The translations under genes were made by a program, and so were the position numbers. From NCBI GenBank assembly GCA_016206155.1, contig JACQSC010000004.1:147591-211590 (forward strand): DNA of 64,000 nucleotides, written 5' to 3'. Source of the stretch: Candidatus Uhrbacteria bacterium (lineage in GTDB: Bacteria; Patescibacteriota; Patescibacteriia; JACQRZ01). How positions within the stretch are numbered: the stretch's first letter is position 1; the number at the start of each line of letters is the position of its first letter. Below the pieces are notes generated by a model. The model searched no databases and was not told the DNA's origin. It saw only the letters and a program-made list of their open reading frames with translations. Positions 5,878 through 36,332 of this stretch are shown piece by piece.

Positions 5878-5909
<32 letters not shown>

Positions 5910-5985: not shown

Positions 5986-6022
<37 letters not shown>

Positions 6023-7573: not shown

Positions 7574-7604
<31 letters not shown>

Positions 7605-7901: not shown

Positions 7902-7940
<39 letters not shown>

Positions 7941-8225
7941 TGTTTATGAGTTTGTTGACTCTTGTTTTCTTTGTTGAAGTTTCAATGAAACTTCAGGAAT
8001 TGACTTGCACGTATACAGCACGATCCCGCTTGCGCAGTATCGTTCCGTATACAAATTTATCGCCTTTTTACTGTCAAAGAACTGTTCCTTTTTCCACTGT
8101 TTAGTGTAGAAAAAAGAGAGAAGCCATATTCTTGTAGACGGCCTCACTCTTTTTTCCAAAACCGCTTTACTGTATTGTAAAAGGGGAGTGTTTGAAGGCT
8201 GTTTTGTTGATAATTTACAGCCCGT

Positions 8226-19094: not shown

Positions 19095-20763
19095 CATTAT
19101 CTTTAAATCCTCTGAATGAATATACTGTCTGCTCACCCATGTTCTTCAACACTATTACCTTTTCCTCAACCAACACCACCTCCTTCACGAACGCGTATGC
19201 ATTTGGACCGATCAGAATTTCGTTCACGCCCGCGGTTTGTTCGAGTCGTGCCGCAAAGTTAATTGTCTCGCCCAAGAAATCCCAGATGCGATCGTCGGCT
19301 GGTCCGATTTCACCGGCAATAAAGTCGCCATACTCGATACCGATGCGAATGTCCCAGCCCATCTCCCGTACAAGTATACCAATTTTTGTCGCCGCCTCCA
19401 ATGCGTTATGCGTCAAAACCGGGTAATCCTCGTTTTCCTTGTATCCGCCAAACACCGCCATTATGCCGTCCCCCATGTATTTATAGACCCACCCGTTGCG
19501 CGAACGAATAACGGTGTTTGAAATTTCGCAGTACCGATTCAGTTCCACCATCATCCCGCCAAAATCCTCTGTTGAATGCACGCGCTTACTAAACCCCACC
19601 AAATCTGCAAAAAAGACCACGCCGCTATGGCGCTTTGGCGCGAGCTTGTGAATGGTCATGCGCGATACCAGCTCGGTCGGCAGATGGGAGCTGAGGATTG
19701 CGGTAAGTTCATTCTTCAGGCGTTCAATTTCCTTCTTCTCTTCTGAAATAACTTTGTTGCGCTGACGCACCGCATCCTCAAGCTCTTGCGAGTATCGTTG
19801 AAAATAACTCGCGCGATCCTCGATCTCTTGAAGATAATTATCGGCGTGTTCGGGCCGTACGGCGCGCAATTTTTTTACCAATCGCTTGTGAAACGGCTCA
19901 TGTTGCCACTGCATGCGTAAAATAAAATAGGGCGCGTTATAAATCTGCCCCCGCTCTAGAAGTAAATAATTTTTATACCGATAATCTTTTGTAATCAAAA
20001 TGCCGCGATGCTCATCTGCTTCATGCGGGTCGCGATGCGATCCAACGTAATGAAAGTCACTGCCGACTTTTTCCTTTACGAGTCCGACAACCTTTCCGTG
20101 CGGCTCGCCCTCGACAAAAAGCATATCATCTCTGATCTCGGAAAGAATTGAAAACTGCTCGCGCAAAAGGCGCACAACGTCATACTCAAGAAGAATCTCC
20201 TGCACATCGGCGTGCGGTTGTTTCCAGATTCGCGGAATGCCCGCGATTACGCCTTTTACAATCGGCCCCGAGTGAAAGTCGTGCACGGGATCAATGTGAT
20301 CGCGAAATTTTACTTTAAAAAAAGCGTGCTCGCGGCCCAGATCGACAACATGGATATCTTTTGTCTTGTTAAAATATTGGTTGTACTTTGGCACGCGCCT
20401 AATCAGTACCTTTGGGTCGGCAAAAACCGAGGCGAGCATGCGCTTCATAACCTCAAGCATGCCCAAGCCGCCTTCAGACGTTGAGGATGCACCGATTTCG
20501 TAAAACACAGACGGGTCATTGTCGTGCAAAATGCGCGCGCGTTTGGTAATTTCCCGAAACACCGAGAATGGGATCCAATTGTCAGGATTCGTCAAATAGC
20601 TTTCGGGGTACCCCAAACCGGATAAAAGAGCATCCGGTGAGATGCTCCTTTTCTTGCAATATTCTACGATTAAATTCACGTTCCGCGTCGAAACGCTCAG
20701 TGGTTCATCGTTATCATTGTCATCCTGGCGAAGGCCGGGATCCAGTCCTTTTTGTAATCCCAT
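19072..20763 (-). CDS. Class III adenylate/guanylate cyclase with a ~350-aa N-terminal domain of unknown function.
   Basis: C-terminal catalytic core FADLVGFS...YMGDGIMAVFG...INFAARLE. The N-terminal region carries no recognisable motif. Confidence 0.75.
   Translation of the reverse strand: MGLQKGLDPGLRQDDNDNDEPLSVSTRNVNLIVEYCKKRSISPDALLSGLGYPESYLTNPDNWIPFSVFREITKRARILHDNDPSVFYEIGASSTSEGGLGMLEVMKRMLASVFADPKVLIRRVPKYNQYFNKTKDIHVVDLGREHAFFKVKFRDHIDPVHDFHSGPIVKGVIAGIPRIWKQPHADVQEILLEYDVVRLLREQFSILSEIRDDMLFVEGEPHGKVVGLVKEKVGSDFHYVGSHRDPHEADEHRGILITKDYRYKNYLLLERGQIYNAPYFILRMQWQHEPFHKRLVKKLRAVRPEHADNYLQEIEDRASYFQRYSQELEDAVRQRNKVISEEKKEIERLKNELTAILSSHLPTELVSRMTIHKLAPKRHSGVVFFADLVGFSKRVHSTEDFGGMMVELNRYCEISNTVIRSRNGWVYKYMGDGIMAVFGGYKENEDYPVLTHNALEAATKIGILVREMGWDIRIGIEYGDFIAGEIGPADDRIWDFLGETINFAARLEQTAGVNEILIGPNAYAFVKEVVLVEEKVIVLKNMGEQTVYSFRGFKDNEESDTPA
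20721..20748. repeat. GC hairpin mini-repeat ATCCTGGC-GAAG-GCCGGGAT. A related copy is at 23675-23700.
   Basis: 8-bp stem with a GAAG loop. It lies within the 5' end of the cyclase CDS and encodes GLDPGLRQDD. Confidence 0.5.
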
Positions 20764-20817
20764 AGCGTTCGTATCATACCTCCGTTATGCGCCAAAGTAA
20801 ATACGCGCCCAAGCGGG

Positions 20818-20872
20818 TTGACATTCCGTAAGGGGGGGCAGAATGGGTGTGTTCGCGCGGAAAGGGAGAGCT
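20818..20872 (+). promoter_or_regulatory. Conserved promoter/5'UTR module of small-protein cassette 1: TTGACA...GGGGGGGCAGAATGGG...GGAAAGGGAGAG before the ATG. It is about 90% identical to 22568-22623.
   Basis: Two copies in the window share a ~65-nt block including TTGACA and an SD-like GGAG. Confidence 0.6.
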
Positions 20873-21094
20873 ATGGAAACAATCAAGCGGATCGTCCGGG
20901 ATTTGTCCGGTGTGGTAGAAATTCTTCGGGAAAACGCTAGCCCAATAGAGCGATACAGCATGTATCGTGAAGTGAAGGCCATCGCGGCCGCTCTCGTGCT
21001 CAATGCAGAGTACGAGATGGACGAGGCCGGGCGTGAGGATCCGGCTGGAGTCGCAATACTCAGGAAGGCGCAGTGTTACCACCCTCACTGTTAG
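20873..21094 (+). CDS. Small hypothetical protein of 73 aa (cassette 1).
   Basis: Starts METIKRIVRDLSGVVEILREN..., downstream of the conserved UTR with GGAG 8 nt upstream, and followed by a conserved terminator. The antisense ORF 20774-21139 was rejected. Confidence 0.55.
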   Translation: METIKRIVRDLSGVVEILRENASPIERYSMYREVKAIAAALVLNAEYEMDEAGREDPAGVAILRKAQCYHPHC

Positions 21095-21110
21095 TCGCGA
21101 ACAACAAAGA

Positions 21111-21150
21111 GGGACGGATCGCCATTGTGTATCCGCCATTCAAAACTTTC
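21111..21150 (+). terminator. Conserved 3' module of cassette 1: hairpin GGACGGAT-N11-ATCCGCC followed by TTCAAAACTTTCTG. It is the homologue of 22881-22920.
   Basis: About 55 nt that is near-identical between the two cassettes, starting immediately after the stop codon (CGCGAACAACAAAGA...). Confidence 0.55.
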
Positions 21151-22530: not shown

Positions 22531-22567
22531 AATACGACCAGTGGATTTGCCCAAACCTCTAGCAGTG

Positions 22568-22623
22568 TTGACATTCCGCGAGGGGGGGGCAGAATGGGGG
22601 TGTTCGCGTGGAAAGGAGAGGTT
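22568..22623 (+). promoter_or_regulatory. Conserved promoter/5'UTR module of small-protein cassette 2.
   Basis: GTTGACATTCCGCGAGGGGGGGGCAGAATGGGGGTGTTCGCGTGGAAAGGAGAGGTT then ATG. Confidence 0.6.
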
Positions 22624-22860
22624 ATGAACCGACATAAACAAGGATTGGGGGGACTTCGAATTCTTTATGAGGAGCTGGGACGGCTCCTCAGCCCGGATGA
22701 GATTCCGGTCAATAAAGAGGAATTTTTCATGAAAATAGCCGACTCAGCGGACGCCCTCCGGGTGTCTGCGCGTGGTCTGGCAAACGCCGGTCTCACCGAA
22801 GGTCAAATCATCACACGGATCGCAAGAAGTGCGTGGATGGAGGTTTTCGGGAAGAAATAA
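22624..22860 (+). CDS. Small hypothetical protein of 78 aa (cassette 2). It is a divergent paralogue of the cassette-1 protein.
   Basis: Starts MNRHKQGLGGLRILYEELGRLLSPDEIPVNKEEFFMKIADSADAL.... It has weak positional similarity to cassette 1 (L.G...IL.E...SP.E), and identical flanks. Confidence 0.55.
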   Translation: MNRHKQGLGGLRILYEELGRLLSPDEIPVNKEEFFMKIADSADALRVSARGLANAGLTEGQIITRIARSAWMEVFGKK

Positions 22861-22880
22861 GATGCGCGAACAACAAAGAA

Positions 22881-22920
22881 GGGCGGATCGCCATCGTGCA
22901 TCCGCCCTTCAACACTTTTT
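22881..22920 (+). terminator. Conserved terminator of cassette 2: GGGCGGAT-cgccatcgtgc-ATCCGCCC followed by TTCAACACTTTTT.
   Basis: 8-bp GC stem plus a T-run. Confidence 0.6.
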
Positions 22921-23015: not shown

Positions 23016-23546
23016 TTATCGCTCTCCGTGGAGCAGTCGCTCAAACGCCTCCATATTCCCCAAAGCATCGTGAACGGGGTTGTGATCATGGGGTGTTCTG
23101 CGCAGTTTTTTCCATGACGACGCATCCGTGATATCGCCAACAAGGCCGGCGTAAAAATCTCCTATACGCCGCGCGGAATGGCCGAAAGGATTTTTGCCAA
23201 GCGTCCGCCAGAAACCATCATTGATCCATTGCCAGTCAAAGGCGGGGTTGTCACTGATAAAAATCGGACGTCCTTCCTTTTTTCCAAATACTGTTTTTTC
23301 ATCGCTTATTCTTTCTATAACAACAGGAATCGCCTGATTATGTTCAGCGGGTCTTGTTCGTGCGAGCACGCCGTGAAACTTCTCTTGGATCAAAACGTTT
23401 CGCGCAAGCTGGCTGAGGAACTTCAAGGAGATTTTCCAGGAACAGCCCATGTATATTTGTGCGGATTGCGTTTGAAAGAGAAAAGAAACACGGCTGTTTT
23501 CAAATTTTTTCACTGTAGCCGCTAAACGACTTCTTCCAAATAACAC
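23016..23546 (-). pseudogene. DEDDh (DnaQ-like) 3'-5' exonuclease fragment. Exo II and Exo III motifs are present, but the Exo I DxE motif is absent.
   Basis: DNPAFDWQWIND (Exo II-like) and HNPVHDALGN (Exo III H-x4-D). There is no N-terminal DxE block, so it appears N-terminally truncated. Confidence 0.45.
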
Positions 23547-25300
23547 TCTTTGCAGTAGACGCGCTCATCCAAAGCAGGGTCCCATGTCGTCTGGAATGGA
23601 CGCTTACACGGGGTCTGGCTCAATTTCGCTTGCGAATTTGTGCCTGACCCCATTTCCTGCCCGCCCCCGCTCTCATTCCGGCGAAGGCCGGAATCCAGTC
23701 CAGTTTTCAACTAATGCTGGCTGTGCGTCGCTTCACCACAATCACACGTCCCTGACCACAGCTGTTTTGGATTTCTCTTTGCCATTCGTGCCTTGTGGCG
23801 TTCAAGAAAACTTTTGTCTGGGACATGGATATTCAGGCGACGATAAAATGCCAGCTCTTGTTTGATATATTTGAACTTCTGGCCGGTGTCTTTATCTGCA
23901 AGAACTCTGTCACACCACGAGTCGTCGACGTCTTTGATGCTATCGGGAATTTCGGTTGCCTCGCCTCGCTTGATATCGGCAGAATCGTCCCAGCGAAATC
24001 CTTTTTCCAGTGCCTTCTCTTTTGAGAGGGGCATAAAAATCCCAGCATTGGATGTATTGTACGCAAAGGGACTGTACTCGGGTGGGAAGAACTCGCCCCA
24101 TTCGCCGGTTTCCTTCATATGCTCTATGAGTTTAGTGCGGAGCTTCTCATATTCATCTTTGGTGTATTGCTTGTTGAGGATGCAGTACTGGCCCTTTTTC
24201 AAGTTACTGCAGCCAAAACAATTTTGAATCGAGCGACAGAAATAGCAATAATCTACCTCAGCGCACCCCTCCATGACCCCCCAGCTCCACCGTATATTAT
24301 ACGAACTAAACCCGCAGACAGCCGAATAATAAAACCGGGAACTACCCTCCCCGCACTCAAACGTTTCATAACAATCCTTTATCGGTAAAAACGCTGCTTC
24401 ACAATACTTTGAATCCTCCACGCGAAACCCGTCATAACATTCAATCGCATTTTTTGAATTGATGAGATAATCACCAGTGCAATCAACATTACTCATCCCG
24501 TGCATATATTGCTTGGGAAATTTCTTTTTGTGCTCATCAAACTTTTCCGCCCACTCACGCACAACTGATCGGCGGGAAAGGTCGGCTCCCTGCAAACGTT
24601 TTTCGTATTCCTCCTTTGAGATCCTCTCGTTAAACCAATAGTACTCGGCATTTTTCAAATTCGCGCACCCAAAACAGTTTATACAGTTGGAGAGATTATA
24701 TCCGAAAATACATTCATTTGAGTCCTGAACATTTTGGCAATAGAAACATTTGTAGCATTTCAAACAGTCGATACATTCATAACACAGCTCTGATTCGCGC
24801 ACCTTCAAGCAGTCGACCGCGTCTTTACTGTTTTGAAGCGTATATGAATAATACGAATCTTCATTCACGTCGCTGTCAAAAACCAAATAACAGTTCTTTA
24901 CCGCGCTGCAATAGTTAATGTAATCGCTGTTTACGATATTCCCTTCAATAACAAAACGTGATGCGTGAGGGACGCTCCTATCGAGGTCTGCGAACTGCTC
25001 AAAAAATGGGCGAGAAAAATCAATATCGCGTGCGAAGGAACGCGCGTCCCATGAGTCGCCCCACCAGGCGGCATTGTTGTATACCGGGAATGGTGTACCC
25101 TCCGGGTACATTGCAAGTATCTGTTTTCCCGTGAGGTCGCATTTTCTTGGATAGAGCAATAATTCATTTTCCCACATGAGCTGAACCCGCCGCCGGCACG
25201 GATGGCACCGTCGTGGCGGAGGAACATCAAACGAACGAAAAAACTTGTGGTCTTTCTCATCAAATGAGAATTCTTTTTTACATTGAATGCAGATATTCAT
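23522..25300 (-). CDS. Cysteine-rich paralogue A of the unknown-function family. Its C-terminal zinc-ribbon region is disrupted by an in-frame TAG (23711-23713) plus two repeat insertions, so it is possibly a pseudogene.
   Basis: Collinear with paralogue B from MNICIQCKKEF to ...LWSGTCDCGEATHSQH, then a stop. The same frame continues LKTGLDSGLRRNESGGGQEMGSGTNSQAKLSQTPCKRPFQTTWDPALDERVYCKECYLEEVV, matching B's C-terminus. Confidence 0.6.
23609..23655 (-). repeat. Copy 5 of the dispersed palindromic element, inserted in-frame in the C-terminal region of paralogue A.
   Basis: GGGGTCTGGCTCAATTTCGCTTGCGAATTTGTGCCTGACCCCATTT. Confidence 0.8.
23675..23700. repeat. GC hairpin mini-repeat ATTCCGGC-GAAG-GCCGGAAT, adjacent to copy 5.
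   Basis: Perfect 8-bp stem, homologous to 20721-20748. Confidence 0.5.
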
Positions 25301-25370
25301 AGTACCGATACTATACATCTGCTTATGGCTGATGTCTATGTAGTCCTTCGCGTACTCTTTGAGCAACACC

Positions 25371-25937
25371 TCAAGTAAACTCGCTTAACAGCCGCTGGGT
25401 TAGCACCCACGGGAGACCGATAATACTCTCGCGTTCGCCCTCGATATGATCAATGAATGGCATGAAAAGAGAATCGACGATACTGAATCCGCCGGCGAGC
25501 TCATACGTCCGCGGGTAAGCAACAATCTGTGCAACAGCTTCGTGTTGTAACGCGCGAAACCATACCCTCCCACGATCAACGCCATCTGCCCGTTCCCCGG
25601 TCTCGGTATTAGTAACAACAACCGCCGTTACGGTTTCAGCGGGATGAGCTGTATACATTTGGAGCATAGCCCGTTCCTCATCTTCATTTTCCGGCTTCTC
25701 TAAAATTTCTCCGTTGCATAAGACGACTTGGTCTGAGGTAATAAGAAGCGCGGGCTTCTTGATTCGCGGAATCAACGCATCTGCTTTTGCGTGAGCAAGA
25801 AGGAGTACGAGTTTTTCCGGGTCCGGATCACGAATCGCCCTCTCGTCGATATCAGAACTCATGACATCAAAGCTAAAGCCCCTCTCTTCAAGGATTATTT
25901 TTCTGCCTTTTGACGCCGAACCCAAAATTATCTTCAT
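25371..25937 (-). CDS. maf: Maf-like nucleoside triphosphate pyrophosphatase (septum formation protein Maf family).
   Basis: MKIILGSASKGRKIILEERGFSFDVMSSDIDE N-terminus. Its ATG overlaps paralogue B's stop (ATGA). Confidence 0.75.
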   Translation of the reverse strand: MKIILGSASKGRKIILEERGFSFDVMSSDIDERAIRDPDPEKLVLLLAHAKADALIPRIKKPALLITSDQVVLCNGEILEKPENEDEERAMLQMYTAHPAETVTAVVVTNTETGERADGVDRGRVWFRALQHEAVAQIVAYPRTYELAGGFSIVDSLFMPFIDHIEGERESIIGLPWVLTQRLLSEFT

Positions 25938-27667
25938 ACAATCTCCTTTTGATAACACGCCTCGCAAAAAACTTTCTCGGAGCGGTCGGGGGCGTACGTT
26001 GTCTCAAACATGGTTGGACATTGACTGCCCGCCTTCGTCCGCCGTTGCTGAAGCTCTGGCGCGACTTCGGCGCGGGAACCATGGTCGTGCCCTGCGCGGT
26101 CGCACATACACTGGCGGTGCCACAGATGGCGGGGATTGCGCATGCGCATGCGCGCCATATGGCGACAATCAAAGCAACGGCGGGGGAGTGGCACGTTCAT
26201 TTTTTTATAAAATGATAACTCCGCTTTTACAATCTTAAAGTTTTTGCCGCAGTCACTACAGGCTAACACCTCGCGCATAATGGATTCGTCAATGTGCGCA
26301 ATGTCATCGGGAACGGAGCTCCACTCCTTTGTTGGTTTCCCGAACTTTCCTGCTGTCTCATCACACCAATTGAATCCTTGCCCCAATGCTTCCTCTTTTG
26401 AAAGAGGGAAGTCATCATTAGCGATTGTTTCATTGTACCCAAACGCGGAGAGATTGGCAGGAAAAAACTGACCATACTCACCACGACGCGACATATCTTC
26501 AATAATTCTCGCGCGCAATTTTTCGTACTCTTCTTGTGAATACTGCGTATTTAAAATACAAAACCTCGCCTTACGCAATCCCTGCGAACCAAAACAGTTG
26601 TCGCTGTTCATAACGTATGAACAATATTGAAGGTTTGAGCTCGCCCACGAGTATTGGCAAAACTGTTCGTTCATTGCCGGTTCAATATTGCTCAATACGT
26701 CACAGAATAACTCGCTACCCAGTGCAATATAATTACTGTCATAGCTGTCTTTTGTCGGACCGGGTGATATAACAATGTATTTACAATCCTCGAGATTTCT
26801 CGCATCAAAGCATTCATTTGCATTTACGCAGTTCAATAGGTAATTGCCGGTTGAATTCTCGCAACGGGTCTGTTGAGAATATTTATGTATCGCCACCGTA
26901 TGAATCATCGATATAAAATCTTGTTTTAACCCTTCTATCTTTGTGTAACTGCCAAAATAAATAGCGCTCATCCTTTTCTCATACTCGCCCCTATTAAGCT
27001 GCTCATTGTTGAACACATAGTTCTTGTTTTTGAGGTTTGCGGACATAAAGCAATTGGTGCATCCACTGCAGTCATAGAGGAAAGATGAATCCATACAATT
27101 GCTCGATTGCTGGCACCAGGAGCTGTTATACATTTTCTCGCAATCAACGAGTTCGTATCCCAGCTCGCTTCCGCGCGCGAACATTGAATCTACAACATTT
27201 TGACTCTCTGCAATCTGGAGGCCGTAGTAACAATCTTCATTTCCACCAGAGGAAATAAGGAGGTATCCATTTCTGTTTTCCCAACAATGCGCTGTGAAGT
27301 CAGAATTTTCTCCGCTTTTGCTCATCATCGCTATTTGCGGAACCGAACGAAAAAGATCTTTCAGCTGATCAAAAAATGGAGCCGAAGGATCGTACTTGCG
27401 AGCATACAAAAACGGATCCCAGTTGTCGGACCACCAGCATGGCTGGCAATAAACCGGGCCCGCGTAGGATGGAGAATAAAAATTTACCGTTATTTTTTTG
27501 CACAAATCGCATGCACGGCTGTATAGCGCGCGTTCATTGCGAAAAGCAAAACGCCTCTGCCGCCGACAATCAGGGCAGAACGTCGGCTCGGGGACCTTGA
27601 TACGACGATAGAATGCTCGATCCTGTTCGATAATTTCAAATTGCTTAATACACTGCCCACAAACCAT
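25934..27667 (-). CDS. Cysteine-rich paralogue B (578 aa), the only apparently intact member of the unknown-function family. It has an N-terminal CxxC...CxxC zinc-ribbon-like segment, a central region with repeated N-C-x2-C-x2-C/N-L-K-like motifs, and a C-terminal CxC...HDHG...CxxC segment.
   Basis: MVCGQCIKQFEI...CPDCRR at the N-terminus, ...NCFGSQGLRK... in the middle, and ...HRQCMCDRAGHDHGS...FETTYAPDRSEKVFCEACYQKEIV at the C-terminus. The ATG at 27665-27667 lies 5 nt after the relE stop. Confidence 0.7.
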   Translation of the reverse strand: MVCGQCIKQFEIIEQDRAFYRRIKVPEPTFCPDCRRQRRFAFRNERALYSRACDLCKKITVNFYSPSYAGPVYCQPCWWSDNWDPFLYARKYDPSAPFFDQLKDLFRSVPQIAMMSKSGENSDFTAHCWENRNGYLLISSGGNEDCYYGLQIAESQNVVDSMFARGSELGYELVDCEKMYNSSWCQQSSNCMDSSFLYDCSGCTNCFMSANLKNKNYVFNNEQLNRGEYEKRMSAIYFGSYTKIEGLKQDFISMIHTVAIHKYSQQTRCENSTGNYLLNCVNANECFDARNLEDCKYIVISPGPTKDSYDSNYIALGSELFCDVLSNIEPAMNEQFCQYSWASSNLQYCSYVMNSDNCFGSQGLRKARFCILNTQYSQEEYEKLRARIIEDMSRRGEYGQFFPANLSAFGYNETIANDDFPLSKEEALGQGFNWCDETAGKFGKPTKEWSSVPDDIAHIDESIMREVLACSDCGKNFKIVKAELSFYKKMNVPLPRRCFDCRHMARMRMRNPRHLWHRQCMCDRAGHDHGSRAEVAPELQQRRTKAGSQCPTMFETTYAPDRSEKVFCEACYQKEIV

Positions 27668-27671
27668 AGTA

Positions 27672-27929
27672 TTATCGGTATAGATTACTGTGCGTATCAA
27701 GATCAACAAAATAAGCGACATTCTCGCCATCCAGTCGGTATACTGCGCGGTAGTCTCCTGTTATGTTAATGCTACGATAGCCAATCCACCTTCCAACAAG
27801 AGCGTGATTGTTGAGAATTGGATAGTTGATATCTGCGGCAAATAAAATAATCCGTTCTCTTGCCTGGTCTTTAAGGAACGGATATTTTTTCAGCTTCTTT
27901 TCAAATTTTTTGTGAAGAACTACTCTCAT
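27672..27929 (-). CDS. Type II toxin, YafQ/RelE family.
   Basis: HALVGRWIGYRSINITGDYRAVYRLDGENVAYFVDLDTHSNLYR. Confidence 0.7.
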   Translation of the reverse strand: MRVVLHKKFEKKLKKYPFLKDQARERIILFAADINYPILNNHALVGRWIGYRSINITGDYRAVYRLDGENVAYFVDLDTHSNLYR

Positions 27930-28201
27930 AATGCGCGAAAATAGCGAGAGATTTCTTCTTTCGTCGAGAGGATGGGCGAAAGATTCTTTTTTCTTTTATA
28001 GTCGCGTTCAGCGACAGCAATGGTTTTCTCAAGTTGTGGGGTCATCCGCGGAGGTGCGGAAACGCGAAATTCTCGCGTGCGCAACAGCTCTCTAAAATAC
28101 GCGTTCACGATGGTGCTTACGGGCATGCCAATTTCTCGCGCAAATTCCTGCACACCCTCCTTTACCTCTTTGTCGGTTTTGATGCTCATCATCGTCTTCA
28201 T
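27926..28201 (-). CDS. DinJ/RelB-like antitoxin.
   Basis: M(KTM)MSIKTDKEVKEGVQEFAREIGMPVSTIVNAYFRELL parallels the DinJ-like protein at 3036. It overlaps the toxin gene by 4 nt. The track ORF is over-extended upstream. Confidence 0.65.
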   Translation of the reverse strand: MKTMMSIKTDKEVKEGVQEFAREIGMPVSTIVNAYFRELLRTREFRVSAPPRMTPQLEKTIAVAERDYKRKKNLSPILSTKEEISRYFRAL

Positions 28202-28241
28202 ATATCTATAGTATATACACCGGCTTATTTGTGTCAAACAA

Positions 28242-28508
28242 TTAGATGATTTCCTTTTGATAACACGCCTCGCAAAAAACCTTTTCCGGTCGATCTGGGG
28301 AGTAGGTGGTTTCGAATTCCCTTGAACAGCGCCCCATATGTTCGTGACCCGCGCTGCTTGCCCGCCTTTGTGCGGGGTCGCACATACACTGGCGGCGCCA
28401 AAGCTGATGGAGATTGCGGAGCGAGCGGCGAGAATCATATCTGCTCTGCGCGCAAGGTTTCATAGATAGTGCGAGCTCATCGGTAGATATTCTTTCGGTT
28501 ACCAACAT
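28242..28508 (-). pseudogene. C-terminal remnant (about 60-85 aa) of a fourth cysteine-rich paralogue.
   Basis: ...LWRRQCMCDPAQRRASSAGHEHMGRCSREFETTYSPDRPEKVFCEACYQKEII aligns with the C-termini of B and C. It lies immediately downstream of a RelE/ParE toxin, as the intact copies do. Confidence 0.6.
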
Positions 28509-28737
28509 CGATGAGAATAATCTCTATTGGCGAGTCGAAACGAAAAATCACGCGCCAATCGCGCGTGATTCGAAAAGAGTAAAGCCCCGCAAGCTCGCCG
28601 GTCAGTGGTTTAGTATGAAGAAGTGAATGATAGGGGTTTGCTTCAAGAACTTCAAGAAGTCGAGCGAGTTTCTTTTGTTGGGGTTTGGGAAGCGCTCGCG
28701 CATTTTTAAGAAAATGATCGCCGTAGCGCAGGATCAT
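28477..28737 (-). CDS. Type II toxin, RelE/ParE family.
   Basis: KPLTGELAGLYSFRITRDWRVIFRFDSPIEIILIDVGNRKNIYR. Confidence 0.75.
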   Translation of the reverse strand: MILRYGDHFLKNARALPKPQQKKLARLLEVLEANPYHSLLHTKPLTGELAGLYSFRITRDWRVIFRFDSPIEIILIDVGNRKNIYR

Positions 28738-28991
28738 GTCTTTAGGTGTTCAAGAAAAGTTTTTGCATTGCTGAAGCGATAGGTCGGCTGATCGTTCATG
28801 GCGACGAAAACGCGATTTACAAATTCTGGACGATAGATGCCTTCGCCATCTTTTCCGGCAACACCAATAAGAAATGACCGAAGAAGTGTCATCTCTTTCT
28901 TGAGTGTCTTGATGTCTGCCGTGGCTGTGATCATAAGAGTATCTTTCCTCATGTACAGCGTAGCAAAATTTATGGCGCTGTCAAGCGCCAT
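28734..28991 (-). CDS. Cognate antitoxin of unassigned family.
   Basis: 85 aa, with a 4-nt ATGA overlap onto the downstream toxin. Confidence 0.5.
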   Translation of the reverse strand: MALDSAINFATLYMRKDTLMITATADIKTLKKEMTLLRSFLIGVAGKDGEGIYRPEFVNRVFVAMNDQPTYRFSNAKTFLEHLKT

Positions 28992-28994
28992 ATG

Positions 28995-30453
28995 TCACAC
29001 GATCTCCTTCTGATAGCATCCCTCGCAATAAATCTTCTCCGGGCGGTCGGGGGCATAGGTGGTTTCAAATTCTATCGGACAGCGACTGCCGTGATCATGG
29101 CCTTGGCGATCACACATGCACTGCCGGTGATAAAATTCAAAAGCGTTGCGATGGTTCATTCGCTGTCTATGCCGTTCTTCCGGGTGCAAGCGGGGGAGTG
29201 GAAGATTAAAGCGTTTATAGAACGCCAACTCTTGTTTGATAATTTTGTAATTCTTCCCCGTCTTTTCACATGCCAATATTTCTTTGCAGATCGACTCATC
29301 TACCGCTTGAATGTCGTTTGGTATATCGCCCCATGAGATTGTCTCCTTTCCTGTTGTAACGGGGATATCGTCTTGCCAGTTGTATCCTTGTGCAAGCGCC
29401 GCTTCTTTTGAGAGGGGATAAAAATCCATTGCGACTGTTTCGTTATATCCAAACGGAGAGATGCGAGGATCAAACGACAGCCCCCACTCGCCCGTCTTCT
29501 TCATGTGCTCAATAATCTTTTCGCGCAGGACTGCGTATTCGTCTTTTGAGTGTTGCGTATTGAAAATACAGTATTGTTTTACTTTTACTCCGCTGCACCC
29601 AAACAGATTGGTTGACGACAAACAGAATTCGCTGTAGTCAACGTCAGAGGATTTGCTCACGACAACGATACACCACCGAAGGCGCTGACAGTCGGCGCCA
29701 CTGGCAAGCGACTCGTATACAAGCTCGGCCCGTTCGCCAACATAGCAGGACCGCAGTGAATCGCGCAAACCGGGAAAACCCGTATGAACATCGCGGCAGT
29801 TTTCTCCTTCGTACATTTGATAACAATCAACGCAGTTCTTTGACTTCGTAATATATTCGCCAACACATCCTTCAGAATTGTAATTGTAATTGCACCGACG
29901 GGGAAAGCCCCGCACATACTGCTCGAAAAAAGCCTTCTGTTCATCAAGCGGCCTTTGTCTGAACTCTTTGGCTTTTTGTTCGTATTCTTCTTTGCTGTAC
30001 TGCGTGTTCATGAAACAATGGCTCTTGTGTTTCATGTTGCAGCAGAGGAAGCAGTCAGAACAATCCGAGCAGTCCTTGAGAAACTGCGAGGAATGACAGT
30101 TCTGTGAGTCGACCACATACTGGCACGCATAACACTGCTGGATGCCGACACATTCGTAGCACAGCTCGCTTCCAAGCGCGTAATCAGTGTCGACGCAGCT
30201 GCGGCTTTCTTGCGCCAAATTACAGTAGAGGCAATCCTCCATCATGTTTCCCGCAAATGACAGGTAGGAATTTTTTGTGTGGTAACTATAATTGATGTAG
30301 TCGGCGTTTTCGTTATTCGCAACCATCCGCGCCGCGCGCGGCACACTTTTTAGTAGAACATACTGCGGGCTCCGGTACGTTCAGCCGTTCCAATAATCCC
30401 CGATTCGCATCGGTGATCTCAAATTGATTCTTACACTGCGCACAGGGATTCAT
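28995..30453 (-). pseudogene. Cysteine-rich paralogue C. Its N-terminal zinc-ribbon segment (30313-30453) is frame-shifted relative to the body (28995-30344), and about 85 codons are deleted between them.
   Basis: The upstream frame reads MNPCAQCKNQFEITDANRGLLERLNVPEPAVCS...stop. The body frame reads ...SPQYVLLKSVPRAARMVANNENADY..., matching B's ...FFDQLKDLFRSVPQIAMMSKSGENSDF. The C-terminus ...HRQCMCDRQGHDHGSRCPIEFETTYAPDRPEKIYCEGCYQKEIV is intact. Confidence 0.6.
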
Positions 30454-30829
30454 AGAGTTCCAGTCCGGGGATATCTCGAAAATGCTTTACATTAAGGGTG
30501 TAAAGTTGTGCGCAATGCATTATTGCGGTTGCCGCTATTGCTGCGTCTGCAAATTCAATGGGTTGTTTTGCGTCCCGCGAAATTTCTCCGGCACGCCGCG
30601 CCACATCCGTTGTATAGGGAAGAGTGGTAAATGGCGCCATCACCAGGTAGAGTGCGTTCTGCTTTTCGCGATCCTTTGAGCTCTTCCCTTCAAACAATTC
30701 TTGGATGGAAATGGTGGAAATTGCGAGTTCCGCAAGGGGGACAACGGCGGTAATGCGCAGAAGCTGCGTATCGGCTCCGCTTCGTTGGCGGAGGTGACCA
30801 ATAATAATATTGGTATCAAGAATTACCAT
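30431..30829 (-). CDS. vapC: VapC PIN-domain toxin.
   Basis: MVILDTNIIIGHL... PIN signature. Its last codons overlap, in another frame, the ATG of the paralogue-C N-terminal segment. Confidence 0.75.
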   Translation of the reverse strand: MVILDTNIIIGHLRQRSGADTQLLRITAVVPLAELAISTISIQELFEGKSSKDREKQNALYLVMAPFTTLPYTTDVARRAGEISRDAKQPIEFADAAIAATAIMHCAQLYTLNVKHFRDIPGLELYESLCAV

Positions 30830-31119
30830 GATGATGCCCTTCGTTTCCTGGCCGCCGAGAGTTCGCGCGCCCGATGCGCCTTCTCATGTTTCTCATCGAT
30901 CTCTCCCCAGCTTCCTTTTGTCTTCAGCAGCATCTTTTGATATGCGCTCGCTGCGGGACCATTGGAAAAAACACTATGAATCGGGTGAAGATAAAGGCCG
31001 TCTTCATAGGGGATAATATTGACCGATGACCGATCGGTTATCCCAAACCTCTCCCTCAATTCCTTAGGGATAACTACCTGTCCTTTAGTATTGGGTTGGG
31101 TGATATATCCAGGTTGCAT
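30823..31119 (-). CDS. vapB: VapB-type antitoxin with an AbrB/MazE/SpoVT domain.
   Basis: GQVVIPKELRERFGI swapped-hairpin motif. 7-nt overlap with vapC. Confidence 0.7.
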   Translation of the reverse strand: MQPGYITQPNTKGQVVIPKELRERFGITDRSSVNIIPYEDGLYLHPIHSVFSNGPAASAYQKMLLKTKGSWGEIDEKHEKAHRARELSAARKRRASSW

Positions 31120-31778: not shown

Positions 31779-31852
31779 TGGTGGACCTAGGCGGAATCGA
31801 ACCGCCGTCTGTGCAATGCGAATGCACTGTGCTACCACTATACCATAGGCCC
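31779..31852 (-). tRNA. tRNA-Ala (anticodon CGC), with CCA encoded.
   Basis: Reverse complement GGGCCTATGGTATAGTGGTAGCACAGTGCATTCGCATTGCACAGACGGCGGTTCGATTCCGCCTAGGTCCACCA, with the G3:U70 Ala identity pair. Confidence 0.8.
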
Positions 31853-31859
31853 ATTACCC

Positions 31860-31933
31860 TGGTGCCCCCGGCGTGAATCGAACACACATTACCTCGTTAG
31901 GAGTGAGGAGTTCTATCCGTTGAACTACGGGGG
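31860..31933 (-). tRNA. tRNA-Arg (anticodon CCT), with CCA encoded.
   Basis: Reverse complement GCCCCCGTAGTTCAACGGATAGAACTCCTCACTCCTAACGAGGTAATGTGTGTTCGATTCACGCCGGGGGCACCA. Anticodon loop CTCCTAA. Confidence 0.75.
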
Positions 31934-32643
31934 CCGGCTGTCATATTAAACAGGTATTGCTGGCCAATTGCAAGCACTGTTTGAAAAAACCAATAGAGCC
32001 CCAAACCACTCGGAAACTGGTAGGTCATCACGCCGGTGATAATTGGCATAAAAAACATCATCTGCTTGCTCATCACCGCAGCCATGTCCTCATCCTTTGA
32101 GCCCGGCACTTTTGGAGGACGCTTTGCGATCATAAGCTTTGACTGCCAAAACTGAATGCCCCCAACAATAACTGCGAGAATAATATTTTGGCTCTGGGAA
32201 AGCGAGAAAAGGCCAAGAAACGTGTGGTTCAGTGTTCCGGGATTTTGAATAAAGGGGTAGAGAAGATTTGCGTATCCTTCATCCTTTAGTCCGTTGGTAA
32301 AAACATAAAACAGCGCGATGAGGAACGGAAGCTGAACAAGAAGCGGGAGACACGACGAAAGGGGATTGATTTTCTCCTCTTTGAAAAACTTCATCTGCGC
32401 CTGCGCGAGCCCTTGCTTGTCATCCTTGTATTGCGCCTTTAGCGCCTCAATTTTAGGCTGGATGTCTTGGAGTTGTTTTTGGCTTTCTAGCTGTTTCCAC
32501 GAAAGAGGGTAAAGCGCGAGTTTTACAAGAATGGTCAAAATAATAATGGAGAGCCCAAGATCGTGGTTTGGCAAAATATTGTAGGTCCAAATCAACAGGT
32601 TGAGAAGTGGCTGATAAAATACGGCTGTGAATAGTTCTTGCAT
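31897..32643 (-). CDS. yidC: Membrane protein insertase YidC (short form). The ORF's last ~12 codons overlap tRNA-Arg.
   Basis: 248 aa with multiple TM helices and the conserved YidC/Oxa1 C-terminal region (FPSGLGLYWFFQT). Confidence 0.75.
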   Translation of the reverse strand: MQELFTAVFYQPLLNLLIWTYNILPNHDLGLSIIILTILVKLALYPLSWKQLESQKQLQDIQPKIEALKAQYKDDKQGLAQAQMKFFKEEKINPLSSCLPLLVQLPFLIALFYVFTNGLKDEGYANLLYPFIQNPGTLNHTFLGLFSLSQSQNIILAVIVGGIQFWQSKLMIAKRPPKVPGSKDEDMAAVMSKQMMFFMPIITGVMTYQFPSGLGLYWFFQTVLAIGQQYLFNMTAGPRSSTDRTPHS

Positions 32644-33406: not shown

Positions 33407-33616
33407 ATCGAATAAAGCTCATGAATCTTTCACTAGCATACCGTATGTAATAAAAAATGTAAACGAGGGGCTTGCTTTTTTTCTTATTCACATTACACTG
33501 GTTGTTATTCACATGATATCCACACTCTATACACTCGCTCGTTCTTTTATTGTTTTTGGTCCCATGCTACAATCCACGCGTTCTCAATTTACTCTTTCTT
33601 CAATCCTTTTGTGCAT
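33407..33616. promoter_or_regulatory. rpmH-dnaA intergenic region with DnaA-box-like 9-mers: TTATTCACA x2 at 33484 and 33505, ATATCCACA at 33516.
   Basis: One-mismatch matches to TTATCCACA, located at the classical origin position. Confidence 0.5.
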
Positions 33617-35002
33617 ATGAATACCGTCCAGCTCTGGCAGGCTACGCTCGGTGAGCTTGAGATCCTCTTGAGTAAACCGAATTTCAGCACATGGTTCCGC
33701 GAAACATTTGTTGTTTCGCATGAGAATAATAAGGTTGTCATTGGTGTCCCAAACGCGTTTACAAAAACCTATCTCGAAAAAAAGTATCATGTTCTCATCG
33801 TTCGCGCGCTTCGCAATGTGGCGCCCGAGACAATCAAAGATGTGCTCTACAAAGTTGAACTCAAAGATCTCAGAAAACAGGCTGACCCACCCTTCGCTTC
33901 CGAACCCGACGTGTTCAGCCAAGCTCTCGGCCAGTCATTTGCCAAGCAAAGCGCTCCTAGGCCCGAACACGTTACTCCGGCAGGTCTGAATCCGCGCTAT
34001 ACCTTTCATAATTTCATTGTCGGGAAATACTGCGAGCTTGCACATGCGGCTTGCCAGGCGGTCTGTGACACGCCCGGTGAAACATACAACCCGCTATTTA
34101 TCTATGGGGGGGTGGGCCTTGGAAAAACACACCTCCTCCAGGCGGTTGGTCACGAGATCCTTACTCGCAGTCCTGAGAAGCGGGTGTTGTTTGTTACGTG
34201 TGAAAAGTTTTCAAACGACTACATTCAAGCCGTTCGCTCGGGGCGCGCAAAGGAGCTTAAAGACACCTACCGCAGCGTTGACGTTCTCATCATCGACGAT
34301 GTTCAGTTCCTTTCAAGTAAAGAGGGGACCCAGGAAGAGTTCTTTCACACCTTTAATGCGCTCCATCAAACAAATCGTCAGCTTATTATATCTTCAGACC
34401 GCCCGCCAAAAGCAATCCCAGCAATCGAGGGGCGTCTTCTCTCCCGCCTCGAGTGGGGCATGATCGCCGACATTACCAGCCCCGACCTTGAAACGCGCAT
34501 CGCTATTTTAGAAACAAAATGCAAGGAGAAGGGTGTTCGGGTTTCCGGCGATATTATCAACTATATCGCAACAATGGTGCACAACAACATCAGGGAGCTT
34601 GAGGGGGCGCTCAACCGCATTTTGGCGTACAGCCAGCTCAACAACGAGGAGCTTGGGTTTGAAAAAATAAAACAAATCCTCTCGTCCCTTACGATGAGCT
34701 ATGCTAAAAAATCAATCACACCAAAACAGATTGTTTCACTTGTCGCTGAATTTTATAATCTCGCGATTGGCGATCTTATCGGTGAGTCGCGAAAGCGAGA
34801 ACTTGCCATTCCGCGTCAAATTAGCATGTATCTCATGCGCGAGGAAATAAAGTGTTCCTTCCCGACAATCGGACAAGAAATAGGGGGGCGCGACCACACA
34901 ACCGCCATACACGCATACAATAAAATTCAGCGGGATGTTGACGAAAGTCCAAAAGTAAAACAGGATATTGATCTTATTCGCCAACGTATGTACAACATCT
35001 AA
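33617..35002 (+). CDS. dnaA: Chromosomal replication initiator DnaA.
   Basis: Walker A GGVGLGKTHLLQAVG, an AAA+ core, and the C-terminal DNA-binding helix region. Confidence 0.9.
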   Translation: MNTVQLWQATLGELEILLSKPNFSTWFRETFVVSHENNKVVIGVPNAFTKTYLEKKYHVLIVRALRNVAPETIKDVLYKVELKDLRKQADPPFASEPDVFSQALGQSFAKQSAPRPEHVTPAGLNPRYTFHNFIVGKYCELAHAACQAVCDTPGETYNPLFIYGGVGLGKTHLLQAVGHEILTRSPEKRVLFVTCEKFSNDYIQAVRSGRAKELKDTYRSVDVLIIDDVQFLSSKEGTQEEFFHTFNALHQTNRQLIISSDRPPKAIPAIEGRLLSRLEWGMIADITSPDLETRIAILETKCKEKGVRVSGDIINYIATMVHNNIRELEGALNRILAYSQLNNEELGFEKIKQILSSLTMSYAKKSITPKQIVSLVAEFYNLAIGDLIGESRKRELAIPRQISMYLMREEIKCSFPTIGQEIGGRDHTTAIHAYNKIQRDVDESPKVKQDIDLIRQRMYNI

Positions 35003-35213
35003 TAACCCTGTGATGAATGTGTGAATAATGCGTGTATACATTAATTCTGTCCGTGGTGGTACACAGACTATTCGAAACTTTTCCAAGTATCCATCCACAG
35101 TAAAAAATATAAACTCCCTTTTATAAAAAGAAAAAACACCCTTATCCACTCCGTCCACACCCCTTATTATTATTACTATCTTTAGATATATATAAATAGA
35201 AATAGATACCCTT
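35003..35213. promoter_or_regulatory. Putative oriC core: DnaA boxes (TGTGAATAA at 35020, TATCCATCCACA at 35089, TTATCCACT at 35143) plus an AT-rich unwinding element (35165-35210).
   Basis: Seen in sequence. The dnaA-dnaN intergenic region is a common oriC site. Confidence 0.5.
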
Positions 35214-36332
35214 GTGAATATCTCTTGCCTTCAAGAAAATCTCTCCTCATCACTTTCACTCGTACGCGCAGGTATTGGAAAGGAAACCGGACTCACTATT
35301 CTTTCAACAATCCTTATTCGCGCCGAGGAAAAGTTTATTTATCTCAACACAACAAATCTTGAGGTTGCCATTCAGTGTACTGTTCGGGGCAAAGTTGAAG
35401 AAGAAGGAAGTATTGCATTACCAGCAAAAACATTTACTGACTTTATTTCACTTCTTCCAAAAGAAAAAATTGAACTTAAAAAAATCGACACCACACTCGA
35501 GATTACATGTGGAGCGTACCATACAAAAATTCACGGGATGGTTCCTGATGAATTTCCACTTATCCCACCGCCAGAAGGCGGAAGCGTTCTTACGTGTTTA
35601 CAGAAGGATTTAAAGGGCGCGCTTTTCTCTGTGGGCCATGCGGCCTCACAACAAGAAACACGTCCCGAACTTCATGGTGTATTATTTCAATGGGTACAAG
35701 AAAAAAATCACTGTGTGTGCGTCGGAACAGACGCATATCGGCTCGCCGAAACGTTTATTAAGGCGCGCGGAAACACACCGGATGTTTCGTGCATCATCCC
35801 CCTAAAAACAGTATATGAACTTTCACGAACGCTTCTCTCCGATGATGACAGTGAATGTGAGGTTTGTATTACCGACACGCAAGTGAGCATAAAAACAGAT
35901 ATGGTTGAGTGTGTGTCAAAGATTGTTCAAGGGGCATTTCCCGATTATCACAGCATTATTCCCCAACACATCGTTACGCGCGCCGTGCTTGAGCGTGACG
36001 AATTAAACCGCGCGGTGAAGGCAACAAGCCTTTTTTCTCGAGGGGGGCTGCATGATGTGGTTTGTCACCTTGTTCCAACCGACGGGACCCGCGGCACCGT
36101 TACTCTATCATCATCAAATGCAAGCGTAGGTGAAAACACCGTTACTCTCGATGCAGAAATGACCGGCAGTGAGAATACTATCACGCTTAATTATCGCTAT
36201 CTTCTCGATGGGCTTTCCCATATGGAGTCAGATGTCGTTTCGTTTGAAGTTGTTGACACACAAAGCCCCTGTATTTTAAGGCCTGCGGGTAAGGGGGAGC
36301 TTACCTATCTCATCATGCCAATCCGCGAATAA
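35214..36332 (+). CDS. dnaN: DNA polymerase III beta sliding clamp.
   Basis: 372 aa immediately after dnaA. Three-domain length and the C-terminal MPIRE are typical of the family. GTG start. Confidence 0.8.
   Translation: MNISCLQENLSSSLSLVRAGIGKETGLTILSTILIRAEEKFIYLNTTNLEVAIQCTVRGKVEEEGSIALPAKTFTDFISLLPKEKIELKKIDTTLEITCGAYHTKIHGMVPDEFPLIPPPEGGSVLTCLQKDLKGALFSVGHAASQQETRPELHGVLFQWVQEKNHCVCVGTDAYRLAETFIKARGNTPDVSCIIPLKTVYELSRTLLSDDDSECEVCITDTQVSIKTDMVECVSKIVQGAFPDYHSIIPQHIVTRAVLERDELNRAVKATSLFSRGGLHDVVCHLVPTDGTRGTVTLSSSNASVGENTVTLDAEMTGSENTITLNYRYLLDGLSHMESDVVSFEVVDTQSPCILRPAGKGELTYLIMPIRE

Follow-up and report, generated by a model that had tools for sequence, protein, structure and literature searches.

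Why do all three toxin-antitoxin (TA) modules in a 64-kb piece of a Candidatus Uhrbacteria genome lie directly upstream of copies of one large cysteine-rich protein gene? The piece in question, hereafter called the window, comprises 64,000 nucleotides of contig JACQSC010000004.1 (assembly GCA_016206155.1, positions 147,591 to 211,590). Its minus strand carries four homologous copies of a family of proteins of about 560 amino acids at positions 23522-30453, and the family copies and TA genes together span 23522-31119. No further TA gene was found when the 40 other small open reading frames (ORFs) of the window were scanned against TA families. A preliminary description of the sequence had read this geometry as a set of three-gene modules (antitoxin, toxin, Cys-rich protein) in a defense-island neighborhood.

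We favor a different explanation, to which we assign a probability of about 0.6 as a whole. According to this explanation, the region is a partly decayed array of paralogues of a Patescibacteria-wide, usually multi-copy, cytoplasmic protein family. The full-length protein is predicted to carry two basic double treble-clef modules, one at each end and together providing four Cys4-type sites, which flank two tight β-helix lobes with 12 residues per coil. The adjacency of TA genes to family genes would then reflect the preferential insertion or retention of TA cassettes in such arrays rather than a three-component system. Selfish two-gene cassettes would have settled in the short gaps of an array that is dispensable and prone to recombination, and recombination or deletion between paralogues would subsequently have remodeled it, leaving copy C and a fourth, remnant copy dead, copy A truncated, and copy B with a chimeric 5′ end, with the TA genes intact. 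The loss of TA genes is counter-selected by post-segregational killing, as is well established in TA biology, and deletions that remove these modules would be disfavored for this reason, such that TA genes would outlive their neighbors.

Family copies and toxin-antitoxin modules in the array

The features of the array are given below in the direction of transcription. For family copies we list the matching positions of the family profile hidden Markov model (HMM; 561 positions), and for TA genes the amino acid identity to counterparts in the second relative (locus L002; the closest relative is represented by locus L001).

30823-31119, minus strand: AbrB/MazE-type antitoxin gene, VapB-like (MazE_antitoxin, 27.2 bits; AbrB TIGR01439, 34.5 bits)
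30431-30829, minus strand: VapC toxin gene with PIN domain (PIN, 1e-14, 55.6 bits; NCBIfam VapC models)
30358-30453, minus strand: N-terminal fragment of copy C, 32 family codons in a frame other than that of the body
28995-30344, minus strand: body of copy C, a 449-codon ORF (HMM positions 113-561)
28734-28934, minus strand: antitoxin gene of the RelE2 module, 66 amino acids (65% identical to the 66-amino-acid antitoxin of L002)
28477-28737, minus strand: RelE/YoeB-like toxin gene, here called RelE2 (ParE_toxin, 24.1 bits, cut-off 23; 78% identical to the L002 toxin)
28242-28463, minus strand: remnant (fourth copy), the last ~70 codons of a paralogue of the L001_7732/L002_12196 type
28210-28237, minus strand: promoter-like site TTGACA-16-TATACT (11 of 12 consensus matches), right after the remnant stop codon and upstream of the YafQ-type antitoxin gene
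27926-28201, minus strand: antitoxin gene of the YafQ-type module (weak DUF6364 similarity; 87% identical to the L002 antitoxin)
27672-27929, minus strand: YafQ/RelE-family toxin gene (TIGR02385, 35.4 bits, cut-off 27.9; 72% identical to the L002 toxin)
25934-27667, minus strand: copy B, intact, 577 amino acids, ATG at 27667 and stop codon at 25934-25936 (HMM positions 3-561, E 4e-251)
25371-25937, minus strand: maf, nucleotide pyrophosphatase gene (Pfam Maf, 1e-42), whose ATG overlaps the stop codon of B (ATGA)
23711-25300, minus strand: body of copy A, ATG at 25300, an open 529-codon frame (HMM positions 3-529) ending in an in-frame TAG at 23711-23713
23522-23710, minus strand: tail of copy A, ~26 inserted codons with a palindrome followed by a diverged last zinc ribbon (CKRPFQTTWDP...CKECYLEEVV; HMM positions 528-561, E 3e-8)

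Judged from their sequences, the VapBC, RelE2-type, and YafQ-type modules are canonical, self-sufficient two-gene type II systems with promoter-like sites of their own. The toxin identities that had been proposed (YafQ/RelE, RelE/YoeB-like, and VapC) are borne out by the Pfam and NCBIfam matches. All six TA genes are intact, whereas two of the three family copies linked to them, C and the remnant, are wrecked. The ATG of B lies 4 nucleotides behind the YafQ stop codon, that of the remnant (at 28463) lies 13 nucleotides behind the RelE2 stop codon, and that of C overlaps the 3′ end of the VapC gene by 23 nucleotides. Copy A follows maf instead, after a 70-nucleotide gap that contains its own promoter-like site, and the earlier statement that every copy begins within 0-5 nucleotides of, or overlaps, the stop codon of a toxin gene is therefore wrong. 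It holds for three of the four copies insofar as they follow a toxin, and the gap ahead of the remnant exceeds the range given.

Profile matches confirm that the four minus-strand copies exist in different states of decay, as had been described, and the birth-and-death pattern is real. Copy B is indeed intact (one residue shorter than the 578 amino acids first given) and is 100% identical to the NCBI entry "hypothetical protein HY623_02905, Candidatus Uhrbacteria" from a metagenome-assembled genome (MAG; 288-kb contig). From the N- to the C-terminus, it comprises a double treble-clef zinc-finger module, two Cys/Ser-ladder β-helix lobes, an acidic linker, and a second double zinc-finger module. 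Relative to the family, it carries an in-frame insertion of 17 amino acids, RAEVAPELQQRRTKAGS, at 26024-26075 (minus strand) in the loop before the last zinc ribbon. The same loop hosts the TAG and palindromic insert of copy A and extra residues of the remnant, and it thus appears to be an insertion hot spot.

The 5′ end of B is unlike the rest of the gene. The first ~90 nucleotides (27578-27667, minus strand) share a DNA identity of ~0.50 with the orthologues in L001 and L002, beyond which identity rises abruptly to 0.76-0.87. Moreover, homology to the YafQ locus of L002 continues across the toxin/B junction for about 100 nucleotides. This suggests a chimera, with a recombination breakpoint near codon 30 at which the 5′ end of one paralogue, next to the TA module, would have been fused to the body of a different one. 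We also considered whether the first 30 codons are clearly of the L002_9982 type, for which a DNA identity of 58% is too weak; the step relative to B's own orthologues remains sharp.

Expression of B can be tentatively reconstructed from this arrangement. The promoter-like site at 28210-28237 likely drives an antitoxin-toxin-B-maf transcript, and B is probably transcribed by read-through from this YafQ-type TA promoter. No Shine-Dalgarno sequence is visible for B in the 4-nucleotide spacer or in the last codons of the toxin gene, and B probably relies on termination-reinitiation behind YafQ. Because B lies 4 nucleotides behind the toxin gene and overlaps maf, its expression would follow the autoregulation of the TA module. 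The Shine-Dalgarno sequence of maf (AAGGAG) lies inside the last codons of B, and the same overlap between a family gene and maf is present in L001.

The remaining copies are damaged in different ways. Copy A, as had been noted, is interrupted by an in-frame stop codon and a repeat insertion. Its second N-terminal finger and its C-terminal zf_Tbcl domain have lost their Cys ligands, and its tail is diverged (about 40% identity). The insert that truncates it contains a 24-nucleotide palindrome, GGATTCCGGCCTTCGCCGGAATGA, at 23673-23696 (minus strand), and a second copy with three mismatches is present at 20720-20743 (minus strand) in the first codons of an adenylate-cyclase-like ORF. No occurrences of this palindrome are expected by chance, and it looks like a small mobile palindromic repeat. 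Copy C was correctly recognized as internally deleted and frameshifted: ~80 codons are missing after codon 32, the frame changes, the N-terminal zinc-finger module is gone, and three Cys residues of the C-terminal zf_Tbcl domain are lost. The fourth copy is a C-terminal remnant as proposed, in which KPCAQSRYDSRRSLRN aligns with LCPQCRYDARRNLRN of one paralogue type seen in the relatives. The start previously assigned to it (28508) falls inside the RelE gene, in sequence that is non-homologous to the family, and the homologous part consists of ~70 codons from 28463.

Distribution and architecture of the protein family

The family is abundant. It has 1497 matches in a collection clustered at 90% identity, and at least 2445 clusters at 50% identity match with E < 1e-30 (6164 with E < 1e-3). 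A scan of GTDB species genomes with a 12-sequence alignment located at least 593 loci, and at least 574 were located in metagenomes. All names given by the sources, and all informative titles among the 79 listed genome loci, belong to Patescibacteria. The groups represented are Uhr-, Falkow-, Nomura-, Sung-, Lipton-, Harrison-, Staskawicz-, Giovannoni-, and Jorgensenbacteria, Paceibacteria, Gracili-, Peregrini-, Peri-, and Abawacabacteria, and MAGs labeled Saccharibacteria. NCBI annotates members as "hypothetical" or as "zinc-ribbon domain containing protein", and no full-length member was found in IMG/VR viral contigs.

For the analysis of gene order we used 165 family genes in 75 genome loci and 145 family genes in 80 metagenome loci. 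Tandem arrays are common. A family gene lies directly upstream of another in 63 of the 165 and 54 of the 145 cases, respectively, in runs of up to five. Paralogues in one genome are only 35-42% identical, whereas orthologues from different Uhrbacteria species are 64-80% identical, which indicates that the duplications are old. The genomes of Patescibacteria measure ~1 Mb, and many of them nevertheless maintain several tandem copies of a family that has no known function or solved relative. Because the family is widespread, costly to encode, and confined to one phylum, it likely matters for the biology of these bacteria, and it deserves experimental work even though the window itself holds a decaying array with selfish inserts.

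Searches for a characterized relative in Pfam, NCBIfam, PADLOC, PDB (by sequence profile), and by Foldseek against PDB returned zinc-finger domains only. This agrees with the initial impression that the family could not be placed in any characterized group, and it includes the finding that B has no confident match to a housekeeping family in Pfam, NCBIfam, or either PDB search. The Pfam matches are limited to zf_Tbcl (PF13451) and zf_Tbcl_2 (PF23477), near both termini. Each of the two models is matched by 7 of 12 diverse members (best E outside B, 4.7e-10), and copy B itself scores 24.7 bits against zf_Tbcl in one scan and 23.2 in another, with a gathering cut-off of 24. None of the defense models of PADLOC-DB v2 matches copy A, B, or C at E ≤ 0.01.

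An AlphaFold2 model built with 106 sequences has a mean pLDDT of 87 and a pTM of 0.88, with values above 90 for the termini and linker and 65-85 for the two central lobes. Along with the residue register described below, this model supports the earlier guess of a zinc-ribbon protein with a Cys-ladder β-solenoid core. Residues ~1-78 resemble residues ~470-558 in BLAST comparisons, which indicates that the zinc-finger module is duplicated. The conserved Cys residues form four clusters (3, 6, 31, 34; 53, 56, 74, 77; 470, 473, 498, 501; and 520, 522, 550, 568, 571) and number 16 or 17, one position being partly His. The set is complete in B, the second and third clusters are missing from A, and the third is missing from C; intact members such as P0077 and P0065 also do without the second cluster. 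The two N-terminal CxxC motifs reported in the preliminary description are present with a different spacing (CxxC-N24-CxxC rather than N20). The repeated core motifs and the conserved C-terminus quoted there exist; the tail of A is diverged.

Lobe 1 (B residues 119-212, examined in 571 aligned members) has a distinct periodicity. All alignment columns congruent to 2 modulo 3 are occupied by C, S, V, I, L, A, T, or N. The Cys-rich columns recur at 12-residue steps (134, 146, 158, 170, ~182, 191, and 203), and the co-occurrence of Cys peaks at i+9 to i+12. A period-3 register with a 12-residue super-period points to a tight β-helix with 12 residues per coil and small residues facing inward at each third position. 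The fold of the Tenebrio antifreeze protein likewise has 12-residue coils with small inward residues at every third position, and by analogy the register would be a signature of a β-helix of this type. The lobes have a cap motif (NLRNKxYCIxNKQYSKEEY) plus a helix, and the linker carries near-invariant FGYNET and W.D motifs.

The proteins contain 27-48 Cys residues (median 38). Central Cys columns are 20-85% Cys, with free replacement by Ser, Val, Leu, Ile, or Ala, and B has lost most of its central Cys residues. Because these residues are only partly conserved and freely replaced, they appear to serve in packing rather than as fixed metal ligands. We rejected a role as ligands of conserved metal clusters given this partial occupancy and the weak co-variation between central columns (r no higher than 0.48). 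The zinc-finger modules have net charges of +2 and +4, the lobes about -3 each, and the linker -6. A DNA mimic, for which a strongly acidic solenoid would be expected as in pentapeptide-repeat proteins, was set aside in view of the modest charge of the lobes. No signal peptide or transmembrane segment is predicted (maximum KD19 0.94).

The repeat of lobe 1 extends beyond the family. Lobe 1 of copies A and C matches phrog_15341, which has no assigned function (E 8e-8 and 1e-5, respectively), and the repeat also occurs in hypothetical proteins of CP220-like Campylobacter phages, including CP21, CPt10, CP20, and others (e.g., NC_027996.1, 139007-139294; tblastn E 1e-4). The CPt10 phage record carries weak "insect antifreeze protein" Pfam matches.

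At low confidence, we guess from the architecture that the protein is a cytoplasmic zinc-dependent binder or scaffold. The zinc-finger modules would grip a nucleic acid or protein partner, and the variable faces of the solenoid would give each paralogue its own specificity, such that an array would constitute a repertoire of binders.

Why toxin genes precede some family genes

A TA toxin gene lies directly upstream of 8 of the 165 family genes in the genome sample, and a TA component lies upstream of 5-7 of the 145 in the metagenome sample. Thus, ~5% of family genes are TA-linked. About 13 TA toxins were counted within ±5 kb of family genes in the 75 genome loci, and 8 of these occupy the immediately upstream, co-directional slot, where ~1.4 would be expected (binomial P = 1e-5; Fisher odds ratio 6-15, P between 1e-4 and 2e-3). 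Another three toxin genes lie immediately next to the 3′ end of a family gene. The metagenome loci repeat the pattern, there with other types of toxin (PIN_3, MazF, RelE, and AbiEii-like). Overall, the upstream genes include at least six toxin types, with RelE/ParE, VapC-PIN, PIN_3, MazF, HicA, and AbiEii-like toxins, and also a BrnA antitoxin. These findings reveal a real statistical association but no fixed system, and homologues do not always stand behind RelE or VapC genes.

Comparison with the two relatives shows how loosely individual modules and paralogues are paired. In L001, the order is dnaN-dnaA / rnpA-yidC-...-TrmB(-)-family-family-maf-TrmB(-), with no TA genes. In the second relative (L002-L004), the order is ...TrmB(-)-family-AKR-NUDIX-[antitoxin-YafQ]-family-[antitoxin-RelE2]-family. 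Upstream of B's orthologues in L001 and L002 (75% and 64% identity) stands a divergent TrmB gene, with no TA module. The window and L002 share orthologous YafQ (72-87% identity) and RelE2 (65-78% identity) modules, whose order differs between the two species. The YafQ module of L002 precedes a paralogue that is 42% identical to B and is not its orthologue. In locus L086, the orthologue of this paralogue (L002_9982; 65.5% identity) is preceded by another kind of TA component, a CopG/BrnA antitoxin.

Elsewhere, similar modules exist on their own. Among 271 RelE2 homologues found, those on four independent long contigs form simple antitoxin-toxin pairs that no family gene follows; behind them lie aminoacyl-tRNA synthetase or convergent genes. 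The antitoxins upstream of RelE2 homologues elsewhere carry a weak DUF2683 mark. Furthermore, we rejected the possibility that TA-linked family genes form a distinct subfamily, since they occur at scattered positions in the family tree and in many cases have orthologues with no TA module. Decay behind TA genes is not unique to the window either: a metagenome contig from another Patescibacteria lineage (L149, 129-5965) carries, in order, a family gene, an [antitoxin-RelE2-type] pair, an N-terminal fragment of a family gene, further genes, a RelE-like gene, a family gene, and another [antitoxin-RelE2-type] pair.

These observations bear directly on the proposal that the three genes form functional modules, in which the Cys-rich protein would act as a third TA component (sensor, effector, chaperone, or regulator) through co-transcription and translational coupling. 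The proposal draws support from the tight junctions (+4, +13, and -23 nucleotides in the window, -8 and +14 in L002) and from the conservation of the YafQ and RelE2 TA-to-family junctions between two Uhrbacteria species. It also draws on the presence of RelE2-type toxin genes ahead of family genes in L149 (twice) and L160, on the upstream enrichment in two independent samples, and on locus L145 (4523-8965). There, two paralogous MazF/PemK-like genes (125 and 145 amino acids) each lie directly upstream of a family gene with no visible antitoxin. However, junctions of ≤20 nucleotides make up 53-58% of those from other genes into family genes and about 40% of those into non-family genes, and tight spacing is thus generic in these genomes. 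The toxins come from unrelated families with different targets, one TA module precedes different paralogues, and one paralogue follows different TA modules. None of the four RelE2 homologues on long contigs has a family gene downstream, the TA-free orthologues of B lack the supposed partner, and no PADLOC model matches. Two of the three TA-linked copies in the window are pseudogenes behind intact TA genes. We therefore consider three-gene modules unlikely, and the data do not support them as the rule for a family in which ~95% of the genes have no TA module upstream.

It is similarly improbable that the arrays represent a diversified intracellular recognition or immunity repertoire, with the variable solenoid as a sensor and with TA genes clustering as they do in a defense island. 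Tandem paralogues that share conserved termini and differ more in the core, birth-and-death turnover, the presence of TA modules on either side of family genes, and a Cys-ladder repeat held in common with phrog_15341 and Campylobacter phage proteins would all fit such a role. So would the neighbors that recur, namely TrmB-type regulators (10 loci) and a VirD4/TraD-like ATPase (11 loci). However, the proteins have no NTPase, nuclease, or other effector domain, PADLOC again offers no match, and no copy was found in IMG/VR. The family has no universal neighbor, and most neighbors are housekeeping genes (GrpE, ScpB, RluA, ribosomal proteins, and oriC genes), some of which recur in a lineage-specific manner (grpE, scpB, and rpsI). 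Finally, the family, which is nearly universal, looks as though it is inherited vertically and keeps its synteny, unlike the sporadic cargo of defense islands.

A further possibility, which we regard as quite doubtful, is that diverse TA promoters have repeatedly been used to gate family genes. The protein would then be made upon derepression of the TA module by stress or phage and would act as a binder, sensor, or effector; in loci such as L145, it may even be the partner of the toxin. If true, a protein family specific to one phylum would underlie a modular, "TA-gated" response.

Pure coincidence in compact genomes, with arrays that do not attract TA modules at all, seems hardly more attractive. 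Generic tight junctions, the predominance of family genes without an upstream TA module, and the heterogeneity of toxin types are what coincidence would produce, but the enrichment statistics for the upstream slot, their replication in a second sample, and the placement of all three TA modules of a 64-kb window directly upstream of family copies are not. A metal or thiol store or redox buffer (metallothionein-like or iron-sulfur), with the Cys ladder as a metal-binding wire, is very unlikely: the many Cys residues in a regular inward-facing register and the habits of Patescibacteria, which are mostly anaerobes with few known redox systems, speak in its favor, but central Cys positions are freely replaced, their low co-occurrence leaves no conserved ligand sets, and the only conserved sites are the four terminal zinc-finger sites, as B illustrates.

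We return to the preferential insertion or retention of TA cassettes in dispensable arrays as the best explanation, and several points weigh against it. Copies A and C, with long open frames of 529 and 449 codons, may be recent casualties or may still make truncated proteins. The census of non-adjacent toxins was made partly by eye and was limited to ORFs of 70-150 amino acids, and the fold-enrichment is therefore approximate. The MazF-like pairs of L145 have no visible antitoxin ORF of ≥50 amino acids, and the first has only 57 nucleotides to a divergent gene. The upstream enrichment could also reflect a benefit of placing family genes under TA promoters. Lastly, the binder and repertoire mechanism is drawn from architecture, and no annotated homologue names a ligand.

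If the favored explanation is correct, arrays of this family are hot spots where TA cassettes accumulate and outlive their neighbors, and they would offer a tractable case of TA persistence in streamlined genomes. There is also a caution for annotation, which is that gene spacing alone is insufficient in compact genomes to declare a "three-component TA system".

The origin-proximal neighborhood and comparison with known systems

The position of the array is conserved, a few kb from dnaA/oriC, with the origin 3-10 kb from the array. The surrounding features of the window are as follows.

33611-36332, plus strand: dnaA and dnaN
31779-31934, minus strand: tRNA-Ala(CGC) and tRNA-Arg(CCT) genes, between yidC and the array
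23016-23546, minus strand: ORF of 176 amino acids that overlaps the end of copy A by 25 nucleotides (PADLOC "Exonuclease" effector model PDLC00753, E 9e-11)
22551-22920, plus strand: cassette with flanking blocks common to the next feature
20800-21150, plus strand: cassette with the same flanking blocks
5505-7947, minus strand: 16S rRNA gene, 2443 nucleotides versus a 1533-nucleotide model, interrupted by a group I intron at 6229-7186 (Rfam RF00028, 53 bits)
5166-5248, minus strand: group II intron D1-D4 fragment, just 3′ of the 16S rRNA gene (RF01998, 55.8 bits)

On the 5′ side of the array in the direction of transcription lie rnpA, yidD, yidC, and the two tRNA genes, followed by dnaA and dnaN on the opposite strand from 33611. 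The cumulative GC skew reaches its minimum at ~34-36 kb of the window, and together with dnaA and dnaN this places the replication origin inside the window. Further neighbors are maf, the adenylate-cyclase-like gene, a PlsC/HAD fusion, prs, ruvC, yebC, and trmD. This company of housekeeping genes, with no TA genes among the other small ORFs, does not bear out the defense-island neighborhood that had been proposed. Because tRNA genes are common integration sites, the pair beside the array may have some bearing on the build-up of TA modules just downstream. The tRNA-Arg gene overlaps the 3′ end of the mechanically called yidC ORF.

The 176-amino-acid ORF behind copy A may encode a DnaQ-like exonuclease domain; it has no Pfam match at E ≤ 0.001. 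The two cassettes share a promoter-like conserved 5′ block, GTTGACATTCCG...GGGGGGGCAGAATGGG.GTGTTCGCG.GGAAAGG...ATG, and a hairpin-like conserved 3′ block, CGCGAACAACAAAGAGGGACGGATCGCCATTGTGTATCCGCCATTCAAAACTTT. The small ORFs inside them (83 and 88 amino acids) are mutually unrelated and have no Pfam or Rfam match, and the repeated elements at 20.6-23.2 kb have no Rfam match at a permissive threshold. The excess length of the 16S rRNA gene is due to its group I intron, and insertions of this kind in rRNA genes are known in the Candidate Phyla Radiation (CPR). One small ORF of the window matched LAGLIDADG_3 and is probably the ORF of this intron (6254-6811 or 6812-7150).

Literature searches on the family, on Cys-rich and treble-clef proteins, and on TA systems in CPR bacteria yielded no paper on this family. 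The TA modules are ordinary. The architecture of the family, its Cys/Ser-ladder register, and the recurrent lodging of TA genes are undescribed to the extent that these tools can tell. Individual parts can nonetheless be compared with known systems. At both ends, the family matches zf_Tbcl (for which B is borderline) and zf_Tbcl_2, two "probable treble clef" domain models that have no assigned function and are silent on the ~350-residue core and the overall architecture. The antifreeze proteins of Tenebrio molitor (PF02420) and spruce budworm (PDB 1m8n) resemble the lobes in periodicity and fold class only, and the PF02420 HMM does not match the family even at E ≤ 10. Unlike these insect proteins, members of the family are predicted to be cytoplasmic rather than secreted, their central Cys residues are partly conserved and disulfides are unlikely, the two lobes are flanked by zinc fingers, and there is no hint of ice binding.

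The TA modules themselves are like RelBE, DinJ-YafQ, YefM-YoeB, and VapBC systems in their antitoxin-then-toxin order, overlapping genes, toxins of 85-132 amino acids, and Pfam or NCBIfam matches, and in having homologues that exist as stand-alone pairs elsewhere. They differ in that each pair is followed, after a near-zero spacer, by a large Cys-rich gene or its wreck. With established three-component TA systems (TAC, the HigBA-SecB-like chaperone system; paaR-paaA-parE; and omega-epsilon-zeta) they share three co-directional, tightly packed genes headed by a TA pair. In those systems, however, the third gene is tied consistently to one TA family, whereas here TA modules occur without the family gene and family genes without TA modules, and the third gene is in many cases a pseudogene.

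The closest parallel to the explanation that we favor is perhaps found in the chromosomal superintegrons of Vibrio, in which TA cassettes reside in cassette arrays and have been proposed to stabilize these dispensable arrays. In both cases, selfish two-gene TA modules would sit in a recombination-prone, dispensable array and survive as their neighbors decay. The differences are that no integron integrase or attC sites were seen here, with no search aimed at them, and that the array consists of the paralogues of a single family rather than of unrelated cassettes.

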